The notes beneath the pieces are model-generated. The model saw nothing but the letters and a program-made list of their open reading frames with translations. It was not told the DNA's origin and ran no database searches. Positions 8,604-26,030 of a stretch of DNA of 64,000 bases are shown here, piece after piece. Numbering within the stretch: position 1 is the stretch's first letter; every line of letters begins with the position of its first letter. The position numbers were made by a program, and so were the translations under genes. This DNA comes from Acidobacteriaceae bacterium (GTDB lineage Bacteria > Acidobacteriota > Terriglobia > Terriglobales > Acidobacteriaceae), in contig PMPH01000019.1 of NCBI GenBank assembly GCA_003161045.1, positions 1,925-65,924 of the forward strand, given 5' to 3'.

Positions 8604-8619
8604 TGGCACGATTCGTGCA
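8604..8619 (+). promoter_or_regulatory. sigma54 -24/-12 promoter for the aor1 operon
   Basis: TGGCACGATTCGTGCA; differs by one base from the promoter at 19503. Confidence 0.8.
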
Positions 8620-8913
8620 GCAGAGAGGACGGCGGGCGCCACAGAGTCCCGGCTGGAGAAACCTCGCGAGGCAGCGAGGGGCATTTCCGGCGCCGGAAAC
8701 AGTTCAGGGTGCAAAGCTTCATCGCTCATGTAAGTCGGTTATGAGTTCTCGCCGGGCATTCTACTTGCTTCTCTCGCGATGCAGCAACATTCTGGATGGC
8801 GAGAGTCAGCGTTACTTCTGTTTCGCAGTTTTCACCGTTGCACGGCCGGCAATTTCGAGAGAAAGCACTTCCTCTGCGGATTGACCGGGTTGCAACTGCA
8901 TCAAGGAGACACT

Positions 8914-10650
8914 ATGGAAATGGATAAGATTTGGCGTGTAAACCTGTCGGACCTGAGCGTCAAGAGCGAGCCAGTTCCGGCAGCGTGGGCTGGCCTCGGC
9001 GGACGGGCATTGACCTCGACGATTGTGGCGGCGGAAGTACCTCCAACCTGTCACCCGCTAGGACCGAATAACAAGCTGGTGTTTTGCCCCGGCTTGCTGA
9101 CCGGAACGGTCGCCGCGGATTCCGGGCGGCTTTCGGCGGGCGCCAAGAGCCCCTTGACCGGCGGCATCAAGGAGAGCAATGTCGGCGGCACGGCCGGGCA
9201 GATGCTGGCCAAGCTGGGCGTCAAGGCGCTGATCATTGAAGGCCATCCGACCGACGGCAAGTGGCACGGACTCTACCTCAACCAGGAAGGCCTGCGGATC
9301 GAGGAAGAGACCGAGACCCTCGGCAAGGGCAACTACGAGTCGGTCCAGATTCTGAATGAGCGCGTCAACAAGAGAGTTGGCGTGGTCGTTTGCGGGCCCG
9401 CCGGCGAGATGAAGATGCTGACCGCGAACATCTCCGTCAAGGATCCTGACAGCCATATCCGCAGCATTGGACGCGGTGGTTTGGGTGCGGTGATGGGCTC
9501 CAAGAAGCTGAAGTTCATTGCCGTTGACGCCAGCGGCGCGACCGGCATGCCGATTGCCGACCCGGAGAAGTTCAAGGCCGCTGGCAAGGCCTGGGCCGAT
9601 GCCCTGATGGCTCATGGCGTGAGCGGTTCGGCGCTGAAGACCTACGGCACCAACATCCTGATCAACATCCTGAACGAAGCCGGCGGCCTGCCGACGCACA
9701 ACTTCACCGCGGGACAGTGCAAGGAACACGATGCTTTCTCCGGCGAAACGATGCACGACACCATCGTCAAGCGCGGCGGAAACCCGTCACACGCTTGCCA
9801 TCCCGGCTGCGTCATTCAGTGCTCGCAGATTTACAACGACGCGGAAGGCAAGTACCTGGCCTCCGGCCTTGAGTACGAGACGGTCTGGGCCCTCGGCGCC
9901 GACTCCGGCATCGCGAATCTGGATCAGATCGCCGAAGCCGACCACATCATGGACGATCTTGGTGTGGATTCGATCGAGACCTCGGTCATGTTCGCCGTAG
10001 CCATGGAGGGAGGCGCCATTCCCTGGGGAGATGGAGCTGAAGTTCTCCGCGTTCTCAAGGAGGAAATCGCCAAGGGAACTCCATTTGGCCGCCTTCTGGG
10101 CGCCGGCACCGAGGCAGTTGGCAAAGCCTATGGCCTGACCCGCGTTCCGGTGGTCAAGCACCAGGCCATTCCGGCCTATGATCCGCGCTCGGTCAAGGGC
10201 ATCGGCATCACCTATGCAACCTCGACGATGGGCGCCGACCACACCTCCGGCTATACCATCGCCACCAACATCCTGGGCGTGGGCGGACACGTCGACCCGT
10301 TGAAGAAGGACGGACAGATCGATCTGTCGCGCAACCTGCAGATTGCCACCGCCTCGGTTGATTCGACCGGCATGTGCATCTTCGTCGCCTTCCCGGTACT
10401 GGATAGCGCGGAGTGCTTCCAGTCGCTGCTTGATCTGATCAATGCGCGTTACGGCATTGCTTTGACCGGCGACGATGTGGTCGGCTTGGGCAAGTATGTG
10501 CTCACGACCGAGCATAAGTTCAATTTGGCTGCCGGCATGACGAACAAGGACGACAGACTGCCCGAGTTCTTCGAGTACGAGCCGGTTGCTCCGCACAACG
10601 CTGTTTGGGATTTCACCCCCGAAGAGATCGACAGCTACTGGAACTTCTAA
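8914..10650 (+). CDS. aor: Tungsten-dependent aldehyde:ferredoxin oxidoreductase family protein (AOR1)
   Basis: KSPLTGGIKESN, GPAGE, GRGGLGAVMGSKKLK, CHPGCVIQC, LEYET, DDLGVDSI, YDPR, GADHT, DSTGMC, DDRLP; RBS AAGGAG before ATG 8914. Confidence 0.93.
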   Translation: MEMDKIWRVNLSDLSVKSEPVPAAWAGLGGRALTSTIVAAEVPPTCHPLGPNNKLVFCPGLLTGTVAADSGRLSAGAKSPLTGGIKESNVGGTAGQMLAKLGVKALIIEGHPTDGKWHGLYLNQEGLRIEEETETLGKGNYESVQILNERVNKRVGVVVCGPAGEMKMLTANISVKDPDSHIRSIGRGGLGAVMGSKKLKFIAVDASGATGMPIADPEKFKAAGKAWADALMAHGVSGSALKTYGTNILINILNEAGGLPTHNFTAGQCKEHDAFSGETMHDTIVKRGGNPSHACHPGCVIQCSQIYNDAEGKYLASGLEYETVWALGADSGIANLDQIAEADHIMDDLGVDSIETSVMFAVAMEGGAIPWGDGAEVLRVLKEEIAKGTPFGRLLGAGTEAVGKAYGLTRVPVVKHQAIPAYDPRSVKGIGITYATSTMGADHTSGYTIATNILGVGGHVDPLKKDGQIDLSRNLQIATASVDSTGMCIFVAFPVLDSAECFQSLLDLINARYGIALTGDDVVGLGKYVLTTEHKFNLAAGMTNKDDRLPEFFEYEPVAPHNAVWDFTPEEIDSYWNF

Positions 10651-12093: not shown

Positions 12094-14118
12094 GTGCTTA
12101 CGCCGAAGAATAATCTCGTTGTTCAGAGCGCATGGCAGCAGTACACTGCGGGCGCGTCGCTTGACGTCCGCCACCTGAGCCCTGAGATTGCCAGTTCCTG
12201 GCAGCGTTGCCAGAACCTGAACGTCGATCCCTTGCGCACGGCCGACAGCGAGATTGACCGCAGCGAACTCAAAGAGCGGCTGCATCAGCACCGTTCCCTC
12301 GTCAAGATCGCCCGGCCGGTGATGGAACGGCTCTACGAGTTCGTCAAAGGCACCGGATTCCAGATTGTGCTGAGCGACGAAACCGGCTACCTTCTCGACG
12401 TCATCGGCGACCCCGAGGTCACCTCCCGCACCAGCGAGAATCAGTTGTGTCCGGGCGGAAACTGGAGTGAGCCGTCGAAGGGCACCAACGCCATCGGCAC
12501 CGCCATCTTCGAGCGCAAGCCGGTGCAGGTCTTCGCCTCCGAGCACTACTGCCAGACCAACCACTTCCTGGTCTGCTCCGCCGCGCCGATTTTTTCCGCC
12601 GAAGGCCAGATGGCCGGTGTGCTCGACCTGAGCGGCGATTACCGCGCCTCCAATGTGCACACCCTGGGAATGGTGGTGGCCGCGGCCGGGGCCATCGAGA
12701 ATCAACTGCGCCTTCAGTATGTTACCGACCAGCTCCGCACCGCCTACCGCTACTCGAAGATTCTGCTCGATCATATGTCGGATGGGCTGATCTCGGTCGA
12801 TCACCGGGGGATTATCACCGAACTCAACGCCAGGGGAGCGGGGATTTTTAGCGTGGACCCCAAGGCGGTCAGAGGGAGGCACGTCACCCAGTTGACCGAT
12901 TGCCAGATTCCCATGCTCCAGCTGCTGAACGACGGCGCCGGTTACGAGGAGAAGGAAATTGTCTGCAACCGCTCGGGGAAGAAGCTTCGCAGCTCGGCTT
13001 CGCTGCTGCGCGACGACAATGGGTCGGTGATCGGCGCGGTCGCCCTCTTCCACGAGATCGACCGCTGGAGGACAGCGGCCAAGCAGCATTCCCTTCCCGC
13101 GCGCCGCAACACCTTCGACGATATTGTGGGCCAGAGTGCGGCCATGAACGAGTTGAAGCGGCAGGCGATGCTGGCGGCGGGCAGCTCCTCGACAATCCTG
13201 CTGGAAGGCGAGAGCGGCACGGGCAAGGAATTGATTGCGCAGGCCGTTCACAACGGCGGACAGAGGAGCGGAGGGCCGTTCATCGCGGTCAACTGCGCGG
13301 CCCTGCCGGAGTCGCTGATCGAAAGCGAGCTCTTCGGCTACGAGGAGGGCTCGTTTACCGGAGCCAAACGGGGCGGGCAGGCGGGCAAGTTCGAGATGGC
13401 CGACGGCGGAACGCTGTTTCTGGATGAGATCGGCGACATGCCGCTGAGCGCGCAGATGAAGCTGCTGCGGGTCATACAGGAGCGCAGAGTGGCCCGCATC
13501 GGCACCGCAATCGAGCGCCAGGTCGACATTCGCATCATCGCCGCAACGCTGAAAAACCTGAAGCTGGAGGTAAAGGACGGCCGCTTCCGCCAGGACCTCT
13601 ACTATCGGCTGAATGTTCTCAGCCTGCGCATTCCGCCCCTGCGCGAACGGCGGGAGGACATACCGCAGTTGACGCAGCACCTGGTGGAGAAAATCTCGCT
13701 GCGTTTGAAGATCGAGCCCAAACAGTTTGAGGATGGCGTGCTGGAGAGATTCAAAGCCTATTCCTGGCCGGGCAATGTGCGCGAACTGGAGAATGTGATC
13801 GAGCGCGCAATCAATCTGGCCGACGACGATTTGCTGTTGCGCGCGGCTTACTTCAACCTGGGCGATCTGGATGCGGAGCCGGCGGGAGCTTCATCGCCGG
13901 AAGGGACTCCGGTGCGGAATCTGGCCGATCTGGAGAGAGAGATGATCTGCAAAGCGGTTGCCTCCTACGGAGGCAAGATTCACAAGGCCGCCATTTCGCT
14001 GGGAATCAGCCGCAACACGCTCTATCGAAAGATGAAGGAATACGGAATCGGCGACACCGCGACACCGGAGGCAGGGGCGCAGGTGGACGCGGCGGAACCG
14101 GTCACGGCAGGGCGCTAA
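12094..14118 (+). CDS. sigma54-dependent activator, GAF-PAS-AAA+-Fis HTH (AcoR/AorR-like)
   Basis: [23 protein letters not shown] (AcoR-type GAF); [49 protein letters not shown]. Confidence 0.95.
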
Positions 14119-19447: not shown

Positions 19448-19518
19448 TGGCAAAGCCTTTGCTGCCTGCGCCGGCAAATAAAAAGCCGCACTATTGCGAA
19501 TTTGGCACGGTTCGTGCA
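19448..19518 (+). promoter_or_regulatory. Two tandem sigma54 promoter matches for the Fe-S/aor2 operon
   Basis: TGGCAAAGCCTTTGCT (19448-19463) and TGGCACGGTTCGTGCA (19503-19518). Confidence 0.75.
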
Positions 19519-19676
19519 TCATAATAAGTCGCGCGCGCGGCGAAGCCCTGCTCCAGACGGTCATGCTCCAGGCGATCATGGCGGGGAATAGAGAATGCCG
19601 GTCCAGCCCTTGACGCCATCTTCGTCGCCTGCCGGGGTGCGATCAAGGCAGCTTGCAGCGCCGAAGTGGAGAAGTT

Positions 19677-20159
19677 ATGGCCAAGGTTTTTATGATTCAT
19701 CCGGAGCGCTGCACCGGGTGTCAGAACTGCCGCATGGCTTGCAGCTTCAGCCACGAAAATCAGTTTCGCCCCGCCGCGGCCAGAGTGCACGTTTTCACCT
19801 CCGAGCGGGAGGGCTACTCGGTTCCGATGATGTGCCAGCAGTGCGACGCGGCCCCGTGCATGAAGGTCTGCCCGACCGGAGCTCTTTATCGCGCCCAGGG
19901 CAGCACGCTGGTCGAGTATGCGCGCGCCAAATGCATGGGCTGCCGTATGTGCACTATGGCCTGCCCGTTTGGCAGCGCGGTCTATGACAGCGTAACCGAG
20001 TCGATCCTGAAGTGCGATACCTGTGGCGGGGAACCGGCCTGCGCGCTGTTCTGCCCTACCCAAGCCATTGAATTCATTGAGGAAAACATCTCCACCCGCA
20101 CGCGAAGAAGAGCCTTCGCCGCCAAGTTCAAGTCGGCTTTCGAGGGAGCGCGGCCATGA
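19677..20159 (+). CDS. Four-cluster 4Fe-4S protein (AorA/DmsB/HydN-like electron-transfer subunit)
   Basis: CTGCQNCRMAC, CQQCDAAPCMKVCP, CMGCRMCTMACP, KCDTC...CALFCP; ATGA overlap with aor2. Confidence 0.92.
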   Translation: MAKVFMIHPERCTGCQNCRMACSFSHENQFRPAAARVHVFTSEREGYSVPMMCQQCDAAPCMKVCPTGALYRAQGSTLVEYARAKCMGCRMCTMACPFGSAVYDSVTESILKCDTCGGEPACALFCPTQAIEFIEENISTRTRRRAFAAKFKSAFEGARP

Positions 20160-21976
20160 ACGGATGGAGCGGCACGATTCTGCGCGTCAATCTCTCGACC
20201 GGAACTGTCTCGACGCAGCCCACCAATCTGAAGGACGCGGTGCTCTATATCGGGGCGCGCGGACTGGGCGACAAGCTCTATATCGACGAAGTGGACGCGC
20301 GGGTTGACCCGCTTTCCCCGGACAATAAAATTGTCTTCGCGCCGGGCCCCTTCTCGGGCACCCTCGCGCCCTCGGGCGGACGCTATCATGTGGTCACCAA
20401 AGGGCCGCTGACGGACGCCATCGCCGGATCGAACGCGAGCGGCCTCTTCGGGCCGGAGTTGCGCTACGCCGGCTACGACGCGCTGATCGTCGAGGGCAAG
20501 GCTCCGGAGCCGGTTTACCTGTGGATCAAGGACGATGTGGTGGAAATCCGCAAGGCCGCGCATCTGTGGGGCAAATGGGTTCCCGAGACGACGGAGATGA
20601 TCCAGGCCGAGACCGATCTCGACGCCCGGGTGGCCTGCATCGGGCCGGCCGGCGAAAAACGGGTTCTGTTTGCGTCGATCATGAACGACGTGCACTCTGC
20701 GGCGGGCCGGTCGGGGGTGGGCGCGGTCATGGGCTCGAAGAACCTCAAGGCCATCGCGGTATACGGAACCAAACCGATCAAAGTGGCGCATCCCAGGGCC
20801 TTCCGGGAGGCTATTTTGGAGGCGCGCGAGACGGGAAACAGAAATTCGGCCGGGGGCGCGGGGCTGAAGGCGTACGGCGTCGATGTTCCGCTCGACACTC
20901 TCAATGAGCTCGGCTCGCTGGCCGCGAATAACTTCCAGCAGAGCTATATTCCTGCCGCCGGCAAGGGCGATCACCTCTCCGCATCGCCCAGTAGCCCGGC
21001 TCGTCCCAGGGGCTGCTACTCCTGCGTAATGAGGTGCGGACGCATCAGCAAGGTCAAGAATCCCGGCTATGCGAGCCAAATCGCGGAGCAGGCGCAGGAG
21101 GAGGGCCTGTCAGTTGCCTTCGATCGTGGCGCCTTCGATCACGGCATCGATAACACTGCCGCCATGATTCAGAGCAATCAGATTTGCGACGAGATGGGCA
21201 TGGACCCGATCTCGCTGGGGGCGACCGTGGCCTGCGCGATGGAGATGTTCGAGGCGGGCATTATCACGGTGAAGGACACAGACGGCCTAGACCTGAGCTT
21301 CGGCAACTCCGCGGTAATGGTCGATCTGACGCGGAAGATCGGGCTGCGCGATGGCTTTGGCAACAAGCTCGCGGTGGGCTCCTATCGCTTCGCCAACTCC
21401 TACGGGCATCCGGAGTTTTCGATGACCGTGAAGAAGCAGGAGATTCCGCCCTACGATCCGCGCGGCATTCAGGGCATCGGCCTGGAGTACGCCACCTGCA
21501 ACCGCGGCGGATGCCACACCAAGGGCTACACGGTGGCGGTAGAAGTGCTGGGCTTCGGGGATAGCCGCGATCCTCACGCCACGGCCGACAAACCCTTCTG
21601 GGTGAAGCTATTCCAGGATCTGACGGCGGCCATCGACGCCTCCGGCGGGTGCATCTTCGGGACCTCGGGCCGGGGTGGGGAAAACTACGCGGCGCTGCTG
21701 ACCGCGCTTACCGGGGTCACTTACTCGACGGAGGAATACGTCAAGGCCGGCGAGCGGATCTGGAATCTGGAGAGGCTCTTCAACCTGCAGGCGGGATTCA
21801 CCAGCAAGGACGACCAGTTGCCCTCGCGCTTCACTACCAGCCCGATCAGCAGCGGCCCCGCCAAGGGGCAGATCAGCCATGTACCGGAGATGCTCACCGC
21901 GTATTACAAGCTGCGCGGATGGGATGAGGACGGCATGCCCACCCAGGAGCGGCTGCGCGAGCTGCAACTTGGCTAA
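20156..21976 (+). CDS. aor: AOR sensu stricto homologue with degenerate active-site segment (AOR2)
   Basis: ILRVNLSTG, VDPLSPDNK, GGRYHVVTK.PLT, GVGAVMGSKNLKAIAV, CYSCVMRCGR, CDEMGMD, YDPRG, NRGGCH, ERIWNLERLFN, YYKLRGW; no GPEYE. Confidence 0.92.
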   Translation: MNGWSGTILRVNLSTGTVSTQPTNLKDAVLYIGARGLGDKLYIDEVDARVDPLSPDNKIVFAPGPFSGTLAPSGGRYHVVTKGPLTDAIAGSNASGLFGPELRYAGYDALIVEGKAPEPVYLWIKDDVVEIRKAAHLWGKWVPETTEMIQAETDLDARVACIGPAGEKRVLFASIMNDVHSAAGRSGVGAVMGSKNLKAIAVYGTKPIKVAHPRAFREAILEARETGNRNSAGGAGLKAYGVDVPLDTLNELGSLAANNFQQSYIPAAGKGDHLSASPSSPARPRGCYSCVMRCGRISKVKNPGYASQIAEQAQEEGLSVAFDRGAFDHGIDNTAAMIQSNQICDEMGMDPISLGATVACAMEMFEAGIITVKDTDGLDLSFGNSAVMVDLTRKIGLRDGFGNKLAVGSYRFANSYGHPEFSMTVKKQEIPPYDPRGIQGIGLEYATCNRGGCHTKGYTVAVEVLGFGDSRDPHATADKPFWVKLFQDLTAAIDASGGCIFGTSGRGGENYAALLTALTGVTYSTEEYVKAGERIWNLERLFNLQAGFTSKDDQLPSRFTTSPISSGPAKGQISHVPEMLTAYYKLRGWDEDGMPTQERLRELQLG

Positions 21977-22220
21977 TGAAGAAATTCATGCCGGTGATGA
22001 TGCGGAACGGCTGACCGAGCTGAGTTCCTGCCCCGTGTGCGGAAAGCCGGTGCGGCTGGCCAGCGAGGAGTTGCTGCGCACGGCCTTCGACTGCATCAAA
22101 GAAGAAACCCGCCAACTGCTCGGGCTCTGCGAACGCTGCCGGAGGCGCGAAGTGCAACGGAAGCTGATCGCCGCATCGGGCGATGGAAAAGCGAAAAAGA
22201 GAACCGCTAATCTCCTCTAA
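21969..22220 (+). CDS. Small CxxC...CxxC metal-binding protein
   Basis: TTG start overlapping the aor2 stop (start uncertain); CPVCGKP and LCERCRR. Confidence 0.6.
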   Translation: MANEEIHAGDDAERLTELSSCPVCGKPVRLASEELLRTAFDCIKEETRQLLGLCERCRRREVQRKLIAASGDGKAKKRTANLL

Positions 22221-22535: not shown

Positions 22536-23414
22536 ATGAAGTTGAAACTCGCACTGGCCGCGCTGGCGGTTGCGTCCCTCTGTTCCTTTGCCACGGCGGA
22601 GGATCATCTGAAGATGTCCACGACAACCTCGACCGAGAACTCGGGACTGTTGACCGTCCTGTTGCCGCCCTTTGAAAAAGAGTGCGGATGCAAGGTCGAC
22701 GTGATCGCGGTGGGCACGGGCAAGGCTCTGAAACTGGGCGAGACCGGCGATGTCGACGTGGTGCTGGTTCATGCGCGCGGGCTGGAAGACAAGTTTGTCG
22801 CCGCCGGCTTCGGCATCAATCGCCGCGACGTGATGTACAACGACTTCGTGGTGATCGGCCCGCCCAACGATCCGGCCGGCCTGCGGGAAACCACCTCGGC
22901 GGTTGATGCCTTCAAGCGCATTGACGCTACGCATTCCACCTTCATCTCGCGCGGCGACAACTCCGGCACCGATGTGAAGGAGAAGCAAATCTGGTCGGCC
23001 GCCGGCATTACGCCCTCCGGCGCCTGGTACCGCTCGGCCGGGCAAGGCATGGGAGAGGTCATCAACATGGCGACCGAGTTGCGCGGTTATACGCTGGCCG
23101 ACCGGGGAACCTATAACGCCTTTCGCCATGGAAAGACCGACCTGGTGATTCTCTATGACGCCAACCGCGGACTGGAGCGGCCCGGCGCGCCCGCGCCCCG
23201 GCTTACCGTCGATCAGGTCCTGGCCCGCGCAGGCGCCAATGGGCTCTTGAACCCCTACGGCGTGATCGCGGTGAACCCGAAGAAGTTTCCCTGGGTGAAA
23301 TTCGATCTGGCCATGAAGTTCGAGGACTTCATCACCGGGCCCGAGGGACAGAGCATTATCGCCAACTACCACGTGCAGGGCGACCCAGTCTTCTTCACCT
23401 TCAAGGAGAAGTAG
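22536..23414 (+). CDS. tupA: Tungstate ABC transporter substrate-binding protein
   Basis: Signal peptide, diagnostic TTTS motif, GTGKAL, VLVHA, VMYNDF, FISRGDNSGT, NPYGVIAVNP. Confidence 0.95.
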   Translation: MKLKLALAALAVASLCSFATAEDHLKMSTTTSTENSGLLTVLLPPFEKECGCKVDVIAVGTGKALKLGETGDVDVVLVHARGLEDKFVAAGFGINRRDVMYNDFVVIGPPNDPAGLRETTSAVDAFKRIDATHSTFISRGDNSGTDVKEKQIWSAAGITPSGAWYRSAGQGMGEVINMATELRGYTLADRGTYNAFRHGKTDLVILYDANRGLERPGAPAPRLTVDQVLARAGANGLLNPYGVIAVNPKKFPWVKFDLAMKFEDFITGPEGQSIIANYHVQGDPVFFTFKEK

Positions 23415-23417
23415 CGA

Positions 23418-24113
23418 GTGGGTTTTATTTCAGATTCACTCCGGGAGGCGCTGGCTCTGATTCTCGCGGGAGACCGCGAGGTCTTCACCGCCGTCCTGAC
23501 ATCGCTCGATGTTGCCGTCTGGTCGGTGATCTTCGCCTCCATTGGCGGCGTTCCAGTGGGCATTGCCGTGGCGCTGGGCAAGTTCCCGATGATGGGCGCG
23601 ATTCGGGTCTTGCTGAACAGCCTCATGGCGATGCCGACGGTGGTGGTCGGGCTGGTGGTGTACGGATTTCTCAGCCGCATGGGGCCGTTTGGCTCGCTGG
23701 GGCTGCTGTTCACGCCGCAGGCCATTATCATCGGCGAGACGGTTCTCGCCATGCCGGTGGTGGCAAATTACACCGTGGCGGCGATTCAGGGGGCCGATGA
23801 AAGGATTCTTCCCACGGCCCTCACCCTGGGCGCCAGCCGCTTTCAGAGCCTCTGCCAGTTGACGCGCGAGGTGCGCTTCGGGGTCGTCGCCGCGATCATC
23901 GCGGGCTTTGGCAGAGTGATCGCCGAGGTCGGCGTGGCGATGATGCTCGGCGGCAACATCCGTTTCTTTACGCGCACCATGACGACCGCCATTGCGCTGG
24001 AGACCAGCAAGGGAGAGTTTGCCTTCGGCTTGGCCCTGGGCGTGATCCTGATGAGCGTTTCGCTGGCGGTGAATATCTTCCTCACACTCGCGCAAGAAAG
24101 CCACAGCGCATGA
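23418..24113 (+). CDS. tupB: Tungstate ABC transporter permease
   Basis: PTVVVGLVVY..LSR.GPFG, GFGRVIAEVG..MMLGGNI, TRTMTTAIALET.KG. Confidence 0.95.
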   Translation: MGFISDSLREALALILAGDREVFTAVLTSLDVAVWSVIFASIGGVPVGIAVALGKFPMMGAIRVLLNSLMAMPTVVVGLVVYGFLSRMGPFGSLGLLFTPQAIIIGETVLAMPVVANYTVAAIQGADERILPTALTLGASRFQSLCQLTREVRFGVVAAIIAGFGRVIAEVGVAMMLGGNIRFFTRTMTTAIALETSKGEFAFGLALGVILMSVSLAVNIFLTLAQESHSA

Positions 24114-24829
24114 GCATTGCAAAGTACCGACTCAGCTCCATTCAGGCAATGCATGGCAAAACCGTCAGCCTGACCATCGATGAACTTAGCATCGCCGCCG
24201 GAGAGCTTCATCTTCTGGCGGGCTCCAACGGCTCGGGAAAGAGCACGCTGCTGGGCATTCTGGCCTTCCTCAACAAACCGCAGCAGGGAACGGTCTATTT
24301 TGACGGCACGCCGGTGAGCTGGGAGCCGAAAGAGTGCGCTGCCTTGCGCCGGCGGGTCACCTTGCTTCACCAGACCCCCTACCTGTTCTCCGGCACCGTG
24401 GCCGCCAATGTCTCCTTCGGCCTGGTGGCGCGCGGCGTAGGCAAGGAAAGCGCGCAGAGCGCGGTGCGGGAGTCGCTGGAACGGGTTGGCCTGGAGGGCT
24501 TTGAATTGCGTAAGGCCCGGCAGCTCTCCGGCGGTGAGAGCCGTCGCGTGGCCCTGGCGCGGGCCTTGGCCTGCAAATCCGAGGCGCTGCTGCTGGATGA
24601 ACCCTTTGCCAATGTGGACCGGGCCAGCGCCGCCCTGCTGGAGTCCGTGGTCGCTTCTCTTGTGGCCGGCGGCATGACCGTCGTGATTTCCAGCCACGAC
24701 GAGCTTTTAGGCGCCAAGCTGGGAGCCAGGGTGATCCGCCTCGAAGACGGAAAGCTGGACGGGACGCCAGGGCCATCGCCATCCGAAGAATTTCCGCGCC
24801 AGACAGGGAGAGAGAATGCCGTCTCTTGA
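24110..24829 (+). CDS. tupC: Tungstate ABC transporter ATPase
   Basis: GSNGSGKST, LSGGE, LLLDEP, SSH; in operon with tupAB. Confidence 0.9.
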   Translation: MSIAKYRLSSIQAMHGKTVSLTIDELSIAAGELHLLAGSNGSGKSTLLGILAFLNKPQQGTVYFDGTPVSWEPKECAALRRRVTLLHQTPYLFSGTVAANVSFGLVARGVGKESAQSAVRESLERVGLEGFELRKARQLSGGESRRVALARALACKSEALLLDEPFANVDRASAALLESVVASLVAGGMTVVISSHDELLGAKLGARVIRLEDGKLDGTPGPSPSEEFPRQTGRENAVS

Positions 24830-26030
24830 AGAAGCACGCCGCTTGATTCTCGAGCGCGCTCATACGCTGGGGAATGAATCGGTCGAGTTGATCGATTCCA
24901 TGGGCCTGGTCACCGCCAAGGAGATTGCCGCGCCGTGGCAGATGCCGATGTGCGACAACTCGGCGATGGACGGCTTTGCCGTGCGCCGGGCCGACTGCCA
25001 GGACCAGGCCCGTCTGCGCATTACCGGATTCATTCCCGCCGGCTCGCTGGAAGAGGTTCAGCTCGATCCGGGCTGCGCGGTGAAGGTCATGACCGGCGCG
25101 CGGATTCCCGCCGGCTGCGATGCGGTTGTTCCTTACGAGCACACCGAAGGCCGCGACGAATTTGTGACCATCAAGGCCCCGGTGCGCGAGCATCAGCACA
25201 TTCGCTTTGCCGGCTCGGATCTGCGCTGCGGCGAGATCGTCCTTCCGGCGGGGACTGTGATTCGCGCGCCGGAGATCAGCATGATGGCCTCGTTCAGCAT
25301 GAGCCACGTGACGGTTTTTCGCCGCCCCAGGGTGGCGATACTCTCGACGGGCGACGAGTTGGTCGAGTTGGGCGAGCCCGTCGTGCCGGGCAGGATCGCC
25401 GACAGCAACGGAGTGGCGCTGGCGGCGATGGTCAAATCCTCTGGCGCGGTGGTGGAGCTGCTGGGCATCGCCCGCGATACGCACGCCAGCCACGTCGCCA
25501 AAATGAGCCTCGGACTTCAGGCCGACATCTTCATCACCTCGGCCGGAGTCTCGGTTGGAGATCGCGACCTGGTGCGCGAGGTGCTCACTGAAATGGGCAT
25601 GGAGCAGGTCTTCTATTCGATCGAGGCGCGGCCCGGCGGCCCCACCACCTTCGGAGTCAAGGGCGACCGGCTGATTTTTTGCCTGCCGGGGAACCCAGTG
25701 GCGTCGATGATCGTTTTCGACGAACTGGTGAAGCCCGCAATCCTGAAGGCAATGGGTTATAAACGCATCCTCCCGCCGGTGATTCGCGCGGTTTTACAGG
25801 AAGATGTGGCCAAAAAACCGGGTCTGGCCAAGTTTCTGAGGGTTCGGCTGGAGCCCGGCGGCGAGAGATTCCTGGCCTATAGCTCGGGCGCGCAGACCAC
25901 CGGAATGCTGAAGACGCTGGCGCGCGCCGACGGGATTGCCGTGCTCCCCTCGGAGCGGTCATCGTACAGCGCCGGCGACGAAGTGGACGTGCACCTGATT
26001 TCAGACCACGTGCTCCGGCTTGAAGCGTAG
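24816..26030 (+). CDS. moeA: Canonical molybdopterin molybdo/tungstotransferase (gephyrin-like)
   Basis: DNSAMDGFAV, MTGA.IP.G.DAVV, STGDEL, DSN, SAGVSVGDRD, LPGNPVA. Confidence 0.95.
   Translation: MPSLEEARRLILERAHTLGNESVELIDSMGLVTAKEIAAPWQMPMCDNSAMDGFAVRRADCQDQARLRITGFIPAGSLEEVQLDPGCAVKVMTGARIPAGCDAVVPYEHTEGRDEFVTIKAPVREHQHIRFAGSDLRCGEIVLPAGTVIRAPEISMMASFSMSHVTVFRRPRVAILSTGDELVELGEPVVPGRIADSNGVALAAMVKSSGAVVELLGIARDTHASHVAKMSLGLQADIFITSAGVSVGDRDLVREVLTEMGMEQVFYSIEARPGGPTTFGVKGDRLIFCLPGNPVASMIVFDELVKPAILKAMGYKRILPPVIRAVLQEDVAKKPGLAKFLRVRLEPGGERFLAYSSGAQTTGMLKTLARADGIAVLPSERSSYSAGDEVDVHLISDHVLRLEA

Follow-up and report, generated by a model that had tools for sequence, protein, structure and literature searches.

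Apparent loosening of one active-site wall in an otherwise conserved tungsten oxidoreductase of peat Acidobacteriaceae

What does a tungsten enzyme do once one wall of its active site has been rewritten, while the scaffold that binds its cofactor is left in place? The question is posed by AOR2, a gene in a 64,000-nucleotide stretch of DNA from an Acidobacteriaceae bacterium (assembly GCA_003161045.1, contig PMPH01000019.1, positions 1,925 to 65,924; the whole stretch is called the window below). AOR2 lies at 20156..21976, like all other window features located here on the plus strand, and by its Pfam and PDB matches encodes the 606-residue large tungstopterin/[4Fe-4S] subunit (WorL) of a member of the aldehyde oxidoreductase (AOR) family. 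A sequence-only reading of the window had taken it for a protein that has selectively lost its catalytic segment. The comparisons reported here show a cofactor scaffold and an electron path as constrained as in any AOR, next to one active-site wall that has lost most of its ancestral constraint. We put at about even the chances that AOR2 still works as a two-subunit tungsten oxidoreductase whose substrate pocket has been relaxed and remodelled.

The family assignment is straightforward. The open reading frame (ORF) is uninterrupted over its 606 codons, and both Pfam profiles of the family are spanned end to end (AFOR_N, 8.5e-78, 261 bits; AFOR_C, 2e-120, 403 bits). The top PDB matches are Acetomicrobium mobile WorABCSL WorL (9mqx_D, 658 bits) and Pyrococcus furiosus AOR (1aor, 593 bits), followed by 8c0z and 9g7j; its nearest relatives of solved structure thus belong to AOR sensu stricto, and identity to 1AOR and 9MQX chain D amounts to 46-49%. 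The AlphaFold2 (AF2) model of AOR2 matches 9mqx_D and 1aor in Foldseek with a template modelling (TM) score of 0.90. Both Pfam domains and the three-domain fold thus place AOR2 in the AOR/WOR family, and the PDB matches together with a maximum-likelihood tree of the flanking regions place it within AOR sensu stricto. The ligands of the [4Fe-4S] cluster are kept as C287, C290, C294 and C499, cysteines that are invariant across the alignment, and the pterin motifs DEMGMD (residues 345-350) and DASGGC (494-499) are present. CYSCVMRC, RGGCH and ERLFN are also intact, so that all the motifs previously listed as kept are indeed found in the ORF.

What sets AOR2 apart is the stretch of residues 226-345 (20831..21190), which has been rewritten in frame and forms a fast-evolving part of domain 2, with the Cys motif and E315/E316 retained inside it. 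The alignments bear out the changes that had been read from the letters: YGT(D/A)VLVN has become YGVDVPLD at residues 240-247 (from nucleotide 20873), the (S/G)GE motif has given way to DHL, HRAAGR reads HSAAGR and NSGG reads NASG. Both copies of the direct repeat GCCTTCGATC, at 21116 and 21131, were likewise located; with their 15-bp period they form a tandem duplication (21116..21140) encoding AFDRG-AFDHG. This duplication is absent from P0125 and P0130, which belong to the same 90% cluster, and P0123-type relatives are one codon shorter at this place; it is therefore a recent in-frame slippage event.

Two other origins of the rewritten segment were considered and rejected. A frameshift or alternative-frame artefact finds no footing in the other two frames of 20801-21250, which hold no AOR motif. 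Insertion of foreign DNA or recombination is contradicted by a continuous blastn match to the canonical locus L015, by anchor motifs that stay in register, and by synonymous divergence (dS) that is equal in segment and flanks. An artefact is excluded by these data.

Has the catalytic glutamate been lost? The central argument for an inactive protein had been that EGPEYE, the motif containing E313 of P. furiosus AOR, becomes EGLSVA. This proves to be a misregistration. MAFFT on 126 sequences, L-INS-i on 9 sequences and hmmalign against a profile of 114 canonical relatives agree that AEQAQE, not EGLSVA, lies over EGPEYE, because the alignments carry no gap between the CGR of the cluster motif and the EYE motif. 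The E313 column is occupied by E315 in the three alignments and by E316 in the phmmer mapping against 1AOR, so the catalytic glutamate is probably retained. A glutamate of QEEG superposed on E313, in a protein of normal activity, had been named as the finding that would refute the sequence-only reading; in the sequence alignments such a glutamate does line up with E313. The same phmmer mapping retains Y427 (Y433), H448 (H454), Y452 (Y458), N93 and all four cysteines, and it shows replacement of T243 by V242, E311 by A313, Y312 by Q314, W316 by L318 and R182 by S181. A 2025 review counts T243, E313, Y427 and H448 as the conserved second shell of AOR, four residues in all (PMC12096430; also PMC13328260), and three of the four line up in AOR2. 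The equivalent of T243 is valine in AOR2 and in its relative P0004 and is deleted in P0006, while serine is the sole substitution reported at this position for the AOR family. The review adds E311, Y312 and Y452 as active-site positions that are likewise highly conserved (PMC12096430); only the last of them is kept.

The rewriting is not a peculiarity of one genome. The 90%-identity cluster of AOR2 comprises 43 sequences, and its exact sequence occurs on 53 contigs. A search for other AORs without the EYE motif, which had been proposed as a check, yielded three next relatives lacking EGPEYE, namely P0004 (80% identity), P0006 (78%) and P0005 (77%); from P0007 and P0008 (73%) outward, all 114 of the 114 relatives examined are canonical. 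The view that the active-site region departs from canonical AOR is upheld, as it differs from every canonical relative examined. In the maximum-likelihood tree, computed from the flanks only (residues 1-225 and 346-606), the EYE-less sequences (seven, in three deep lineages) are monophyletic with support of 100/99 and nested inside the canonical bacterial AORs, P0005 being the first to branch. A word-based search with residues 225-345 alone retrieves only the own 90% cluster, and the distant members were reached through searches with the whole protein. No AOR2 orthologue appeared in the genomes of 60 relatives at E <= 1e-100, a result that is uninformative on the clade, and a scan of genome contigs returned no further EYE-less species representative, its best matches being canonical (L015, 71%; L009, 67%). 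On the short contig that carries P0005 (L008:1-2903) there is no iron-sulphur (FeS) gene in the 407 nucleotides upstream and a transfer RNA-like sequence follows downstream; in this lineage the gene may have moved out of its island.

The clade carries its own fixed residues. It departs from the canonical sequences at more than 25 sites where all 114 of them agree (100%), among them the equivalents of T243, E311, Y312, W316, R182 and the GGE motif. At canonically invariant positions of the flanks and anchor motifs, G95S, P256A, I292M, A432P and F504S are fixed in all seven clade sequences, and R181S and V455T in six of the seven. In sequence these sites adjoin N93, A183 (P. furiosus numbering), the Cys motif, Y433, H454 and C499. 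Positions that turned from conserved to variable lie in residues 226-262, 263-285 and 301-335.

The contrast between segment and flanks is also evident in the substitution rates. Ratios of nonsynonymous to synonymous divergence (dN/dS) were estimated by the Nei-Gojobori method for pairs within the clade and for five canonical control pairs. In the clade pairs dN/dS is 0.06-0.09 in the flanks and rises in the mid-segment from 0.16 in the close pair to 0.51 in deep pairs, with dN(mid)/dN(flank) of 2.6-7.8, whereas the control pairs show 0.07-0.18 in the flanks, 0.04-0.13 in the mid-segment and a dN(mid)/dN(flank) of 0.66-1.0. Accordingly, the identity of residues 226-345 tracks that of the flanks in canonical pairs (for example, 0.85 versus 0.84), while in the clade lineages flank identity of 0.81-0.96 stands against 0.31-0.88 in the segment; between the three deep lineages identity falls to 0.23-0.43 in the sub-segments, compared with 0.85-0.87 in the flanks and 0.71 in the Cys motif. 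Since dS is alike in segment and flanks, the acceleration affects nonsynonymous sites only, and neither a mutational hot spot nor imported DNA accounts for it. Lengths behave in the same manner: the three sub-segments are nearly fixed in canonical sequences (36-37, 23 and 29-31 residues) and vary in the clade (25-37, 22-24 and 30-35 residues), through insertions and deletions (indels) that are all in frame. The five lineages for which DNA is available contain no stop or frameshift despite dS of about 1-2 between lineages, and the gene is therefore clearly maintained by selection. Simple decay, with changes unique to this genome and dN/dS near 1, had been named as the outcome that would undercut a new function, and neither of its signs is seen: the changes are shared with other lineages and dN/dS is well below 1. 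Free of stops and frameshifts, AOR2 does not have the marks of a pseudogene, and the data argue strongly against a dead gene. Neighbouring genes are under ordinary purifying selection, with dN/dS of 0.06-0.11 for the FeS gene, 0.08-0.15 for TupA and 0.10-0.13 for MoeA.

If selection maintains the protein, with what does it work? Directly upstream, and overlapping the AOR2 start by four nucleotides (ATGA), lies a gene for a small Fe-S subunit (19677..20159), a WorS/AorA-like polyferredoxin of 160 residues with matches to the Pfam Fer4 families; its 16 cysteines are all conserved (16/16) across the clade and in the canonical L015. The pairing of WorL with an adjacent four-[4Fe-4S] WorS, and the absence of flavoprotein and Bfu genes, correspond to the Class II WOR layout; no FAD or NuoEF-type gene was found within the FeS-AOR2 operon. 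Downstream follow the genes of a tungstate ABC transporter, tupABC (22536..24829; PBP_like_2, BPD_transp_1 and ABC_tran in Pfam), retained in synteny at all clade loci that have flanking DNA, and moeA for metal insertion into the pterin cofactor (24816..26030; MoeA_N, MoCF_biosynth and MoeA_C). The presence of tupABC and moeA in the operon argues for tungsten supply only. Upstream of the FeS gene a sigma54-type -24/-12 promoter-like site, TGGCAC-N5-GTGC (19503..19517), differs by one mismatch from TGGCAC-N5-TTGC. The site before AOR1, TGGCACGATTCGTGC (8604-8618), and that before FeS-AOR2, TGGCACGGTTCGTGC (19503-19517), are near-identical, and the pair is consistent with a single sigma54 regulon, although the pattern by itself is not enriched in the window (6 occurrences found versus 6.4 expected). 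A sigma54-dependent activator of the island, with GAF-PAS-AAA-HTH architecture in Pfam, is encoded at 12094..14118, and its gene is common to the clade loci and the canonical syntenic loci.

The sequence is also present in nature beyond the assembled genome. Many peat metagenomes contain the stretch at 100% of sampled words, and 20-63% of the words occur in six metatranscriptomic runs, which come from five studies. Contigs from four of these runs (four studies), aligned to the window, are 95-100% identical to it, most of them above 99%. They span the FeS gene and its junction with AOR2 (19604-20343), the rewritten part of AOR2 (20762-21285) and the 83-residue ORF described below. One of them starts at 19604, downstream of the promoter-like site at 19503; gaps over parts of AOR2 in single runs are no evidence of absence. 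The suggestion that AOR2 is kept intact and wired for expression is supported by the strong purifying selection outside the segment, the sigma54-type promoter-like site and the occurrence in RNA libraries.

A further difference between the clade and its relatives lies outside the coding sequence. The canonical syntenic relatives compared here are P0008 and L015, the latter from a metagenome-assembled genome titled uncultured Terracidiphilus sp., both at 71-73% identity to AOR2; at the nucleotide level AOR2 is about 75% identical to the L015 locus across the whole gene. Their island likewise comprises the sigma54 activator, MoeA-PBP, MoeA and MoaA divergent from FeS-AOR, with tupABC downstream. 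These loci differ, however, in the genes that separate AOR from tupA, which encode MoaD/ThiS, a 999-residue Mrp-type antiporter subunit, a hydrogenase small subunit, a NuoH-like subunit, a ferredoxin-like subunit, a 30-kDa subunit, a [NiFe] large subunit and ThiF. The hydrogenase is a six-gene group 4 [NiFe] module, and the L015 large subunit has its nickel-iron motifs RVCGIC and DPCYSC intact. The clade loci (the window, L003, L004 and L006) are without the MoaD-hydrogenase-ThiF block. What they have instead is an 83-residue ORF with a CxxC...CxxC pattern (21969..22220), whose TTG start overlaps the end of AOR2 by eight nucleotides and which is homologous to the last ~75 residues of the hydrogenase ferredoxin-like subunit. 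In tblastn it matches the 3' end of the subunit gene in L015 (E 2e-9, 50% over 74 residues) and in L009 (E 7e-15), with 21 invariant columns that include both CxxC pairs; it is therefore a deletion remnant, the tail of a hydrogenase subunit. Its frame is kept in all four clade loci, which represent two deep lineages, with dN/dS of 0.16-0.38, so this tail is still moderately constrained. A complex prediction of AOR2 with the tail ORF scored 0.00, which is no evidence either way. In the source genome, which is 85% complete, no orthologue of the hydrogenase module was found, the best large-subunit matches being NuoD-like genes at 33-35% identity and an unrelated [NiFe] hydrogenase.

Could AOR2, having lost its hydrogenase partner, be a functionless relic whose erosion begins in the catalytic segment? 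The deleted module, the indels and fast change of the segment and a hydrogenase maturation gene, HypF, lying in four fragments beside the P0004 locus would all agree with such a course. It would have to be reconciled with flanks held at the low dN/dS given above through dS of about 1-2, five lineages with in-frame indels only and neither stop nor frameshift, and a protein whose gene occurs on over 50 contigs, recovered across many peat samples, and in RNA libraries. We consider it very improbable.

A different history can be proposed. AOR2 descends directly from an AOR sensu stricto of peat Acidobacteriaceae-like bacteria, as the WorL paired with a four-cluster WorS in the Class II manner. In the ancestor, FeS-AOR would have been encoded with MoaD and a membrane-bound group 4 [NiFe] hydrogenase, as in today's canonical relatives, a layout suggestive of aldehyde oxidation coupled to H2. 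At the clade loci with flanking DNA the hydrogenase genes are gone, apart from the zinc-ribbon-like tail of one subunit, and the clade stem fixed G95S, P256A, I292M, A432P and F504S near cofactor or catalytic residues, with R181S, T242V and V455T added later; the hydrogenase may have been lost before or after the stem substitutions. That its loss is linked to the relaxation of the segment we infer from their co-occurrence in one clade, which amounts to a single evolutionary event. Afterwards some 110 residues of domain 2, a stretch that carries the second-shell T243, E311 and Y312 and flanks the [4Fe-4S] ligands, have evolved 3-8 times faster than the rest and accumulated in-frame indels, while the scaffold, the four cysteines, E315/E316, Y433, H454 and Y458 have stayed under strong purifying selection. 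The protein would still bind the tungsten cofactor and the cluster and pass electrons via WorS, its pocket having probably become more open and hydrophilic and lost some of its constraint. The expected outcome would be a changed or broadened substrate use, probably with poorer classical aldehyde oxidation, rather than no chemistry. We favour this remodelled enzyme because new residues have been fixed beside catalytic and cofactor positions, Glu, Tyr and His are kept, the dedicated WorS is intact and tupABC-moeA remain attached.

Several observations weigh against it. The GGAGLKAYGT loop, 10-12 residues, is lost in P0004 and P0006, and the segment is still diverging between lineages at the identities of 0.23-0.43 given above; both look more like lost constraint than like the making of a new specific pocket. 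In P0005, MAFFT and hmmalign place a lysine at the E313 column. The AF2 model of AOR2, with a mean predicted local distance difference test (pLDDT) of 79.7 and flanks above 90, falls below 50 at residues 231-243 and 267-332, the Cys motif included. The canonical P0008, modelled as a control with the same rows, reaches 92.3, has no residue below 50 and forms a beta-sheet at 281-312. This shows that the predictor no longer reads the AOR2 segment as the canonical structure; the low pLDDT is no proof of disorder, because only 7 of the 78 rows in the single alignment used for both proteins share the new segment sequence. The RNA-library contigs, for their part, may include DNA carry-over and give no expression levels.

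The same observations lend themselves to another interpretation, according to which AOR2 folds around its tungsten cofactor and [4Fe-4S] cluster without turnover, as a carrier or store, as an electron-transfer or scaffold partner of WorS, or as a sensor. An active-site wall that turned from conserved to variable, with the T243 loop deleted in two lineages and a lysine at the E313 column in one, is what such a protein might display; it has lost the equivalents of T243, E311, Y312 and R182, listed in a review as highly conserved around the tungsten cofactor (PMC12096430), and the collapse of AF2 confidence is confined to the segment. Precedents exist within the AOR family, in which neither P. 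furiosus WOR4 nor CsWOR41 of Cetobacterium somerae has given a detectable activity on aldehydes, and the chemistry could be left to AOR1, which keeps the canonical residues in the same island. Such a pseudo-enzyme is harder to square with the retention of E315/E316, Y433, H454 and Y458, which the newly fixed residues adjoin, with a segment that is still constrained (dN/dS 0.16-0.51), and with the continued coupling to a 16-Cys WorS and to tupABC-moeA, costly for a non-enzyme. We regard it as a possibility of some weight, though more probably wrong than right. A narrower version, which we offer tentatively and hold to be doubtful, would see in the clade a recently born 'pseudo-tungstoenzyme', selected for binding of W-bis-pterin and [4Fe-4S] and for pairing with the polyferredoxin, without aldehyde turnover, serving as cofactor store, carrier or electron relay and originating in the lineage that lost its AOR-coupled group 4 hydrogenase. 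The earlier statement that AOR2 probably cannot carry out standard aldehyde oxidation may be right, but we rate the likelihood of an altered or weakened enzyme no lower than that of a pseudo-enzyme.

At the other extreme, the changes might be neutral or mildly adaptive ones at the surface of an ordinary AOR with normal broad aldehyde oxidation. Three of the four defining second-shell residues do align, AORs are non-specific enzymes in which active-site differences fine-tune specificity (PMC12727526), and sigma54 activator and promoter type are those of the canonical loci. Yet the replacement of more than 25 positions invariant in 114 close canonical relatives, and a lag of the mid-segment that canonical pairs never show to this extent, make this explanation improbable.

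How unusual would the remodelled AOR2 be among known tungstoenzymes? To P. furiosus AOR (1AOR) and A. mobile WorL (9MQX chain D) it is alike in fold, Cys ligands, DxxGxD/C motifs, N93, Y427, H448, Y452 and a glutamate at or next to E313. It differs from them by T243V, E311A, Y312Q, W316L, R182S and the loss of GGE, by the clade-fixed G95S, A426P, V/I449T and F499S, and by the fast, indel-bearing 226-345. Its canonical Acidobacteriaceae orthologues P0008 and L015 share the island but keep EGPEYE, the canonical residues and the hydrogenase module. P. furiosus WOR5/ASOR (6X1O), of Class II, resembles AOR2 in consisting of WorL and a four-cluster WorS, and its change of function goes together with the absence of the conserved Thr and the exchange of an otherwise conserved Arg (PMC12096430; PMC13328260). 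It belongs, however, to a deep separate clade (184 bits to AOR2) whose new pocket is conserved and whose substrate is known, whereas the pocket wall of AOR2 varies within its clade. P. furiosus WOR4 and CsWOR41, AOR-family members of distant clades, bind tungsten, and no oxidation of aldehydes has been seen with either; WOR4 is missing one Cys ligand (Fe3S4 cluster) and has Trp in place of Tyr, whereas AOR2 keeps four Cys and the Tyr. Altered second shells with new or missing activity are thus known as deep clades (WOR5/ASOR, GAPOR, WOR4, BamB and clade 41). The novelty of AOR2 is that the case is shallow and datable and falls within AOR sensu stricto, where its canonical sister is intact and the scar in the genome can still be seen; our literature search found no paper describing this AOR2 variant.

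The pair of sisters constitutes a natural experiment, as they are ~73% identical (~80% in the flanks) and their differences are almost confined to one active-site wall and the attachment of a hydrogenase module. Their comparison would show which second-shell residues (T243, E311, Y312, R182) aldehyde oxidation needs, and whether evolution can retain a scaffold of this family for a different use. The canonical sister locus deserves attention of its own: in L015 (9486-19698), in the P0008 contigs and in L009, canonical FeS-AOR-MoaD stands directly before the hydrogenase module, followed by ThiF and tupABC, in an island with the same sigma54 activator. This arrangement makes it a candidate tungsten 'aldehyde hydrogenlyase' of peat Acidobacteriaceae, a possible activity that bears on H2 and organic-acid turnover in peat.

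The remainder of the island and a few stray loci call for brief mention. Upstream of FeS-AOR2, moaA and two moeA genes lie on the opposite strand, and farther 5' are the sigma54 activator, thiF and AOR1, with thiS-thiF positioned after AOR1. In the genome of P0004, gene calling splits HypF into four fragments in a row (acylphosphatase, Sua5/YrdC, HypF_C and HypF_C_2; L003:17711-20117), which suggests a broken copy of this maturation gene near the AOR2-type locus. In the source genome, a stretch resembling NuoD and hydrogenase large subunits (G000:C61:3681-4686; L089-L091) matches in three pieces with two TGA and one TAG inside, and is a possible pseudogene. The only AFOR_N matches in that genome are AOR1 and AOR2. 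AOR1 (8779..10650) is a distant AOR-family paralogue at 34% identity to AOR2 and retains YGT, GE, LEYE, PAYDPR and the His; the L-INS-i alignment confirms the LEYE that had been reported for it. Its longest ORF begins with an N-terminal extension of ~45 residues that aligns to no AOR, and the true start is probably near the MEMDK motif.

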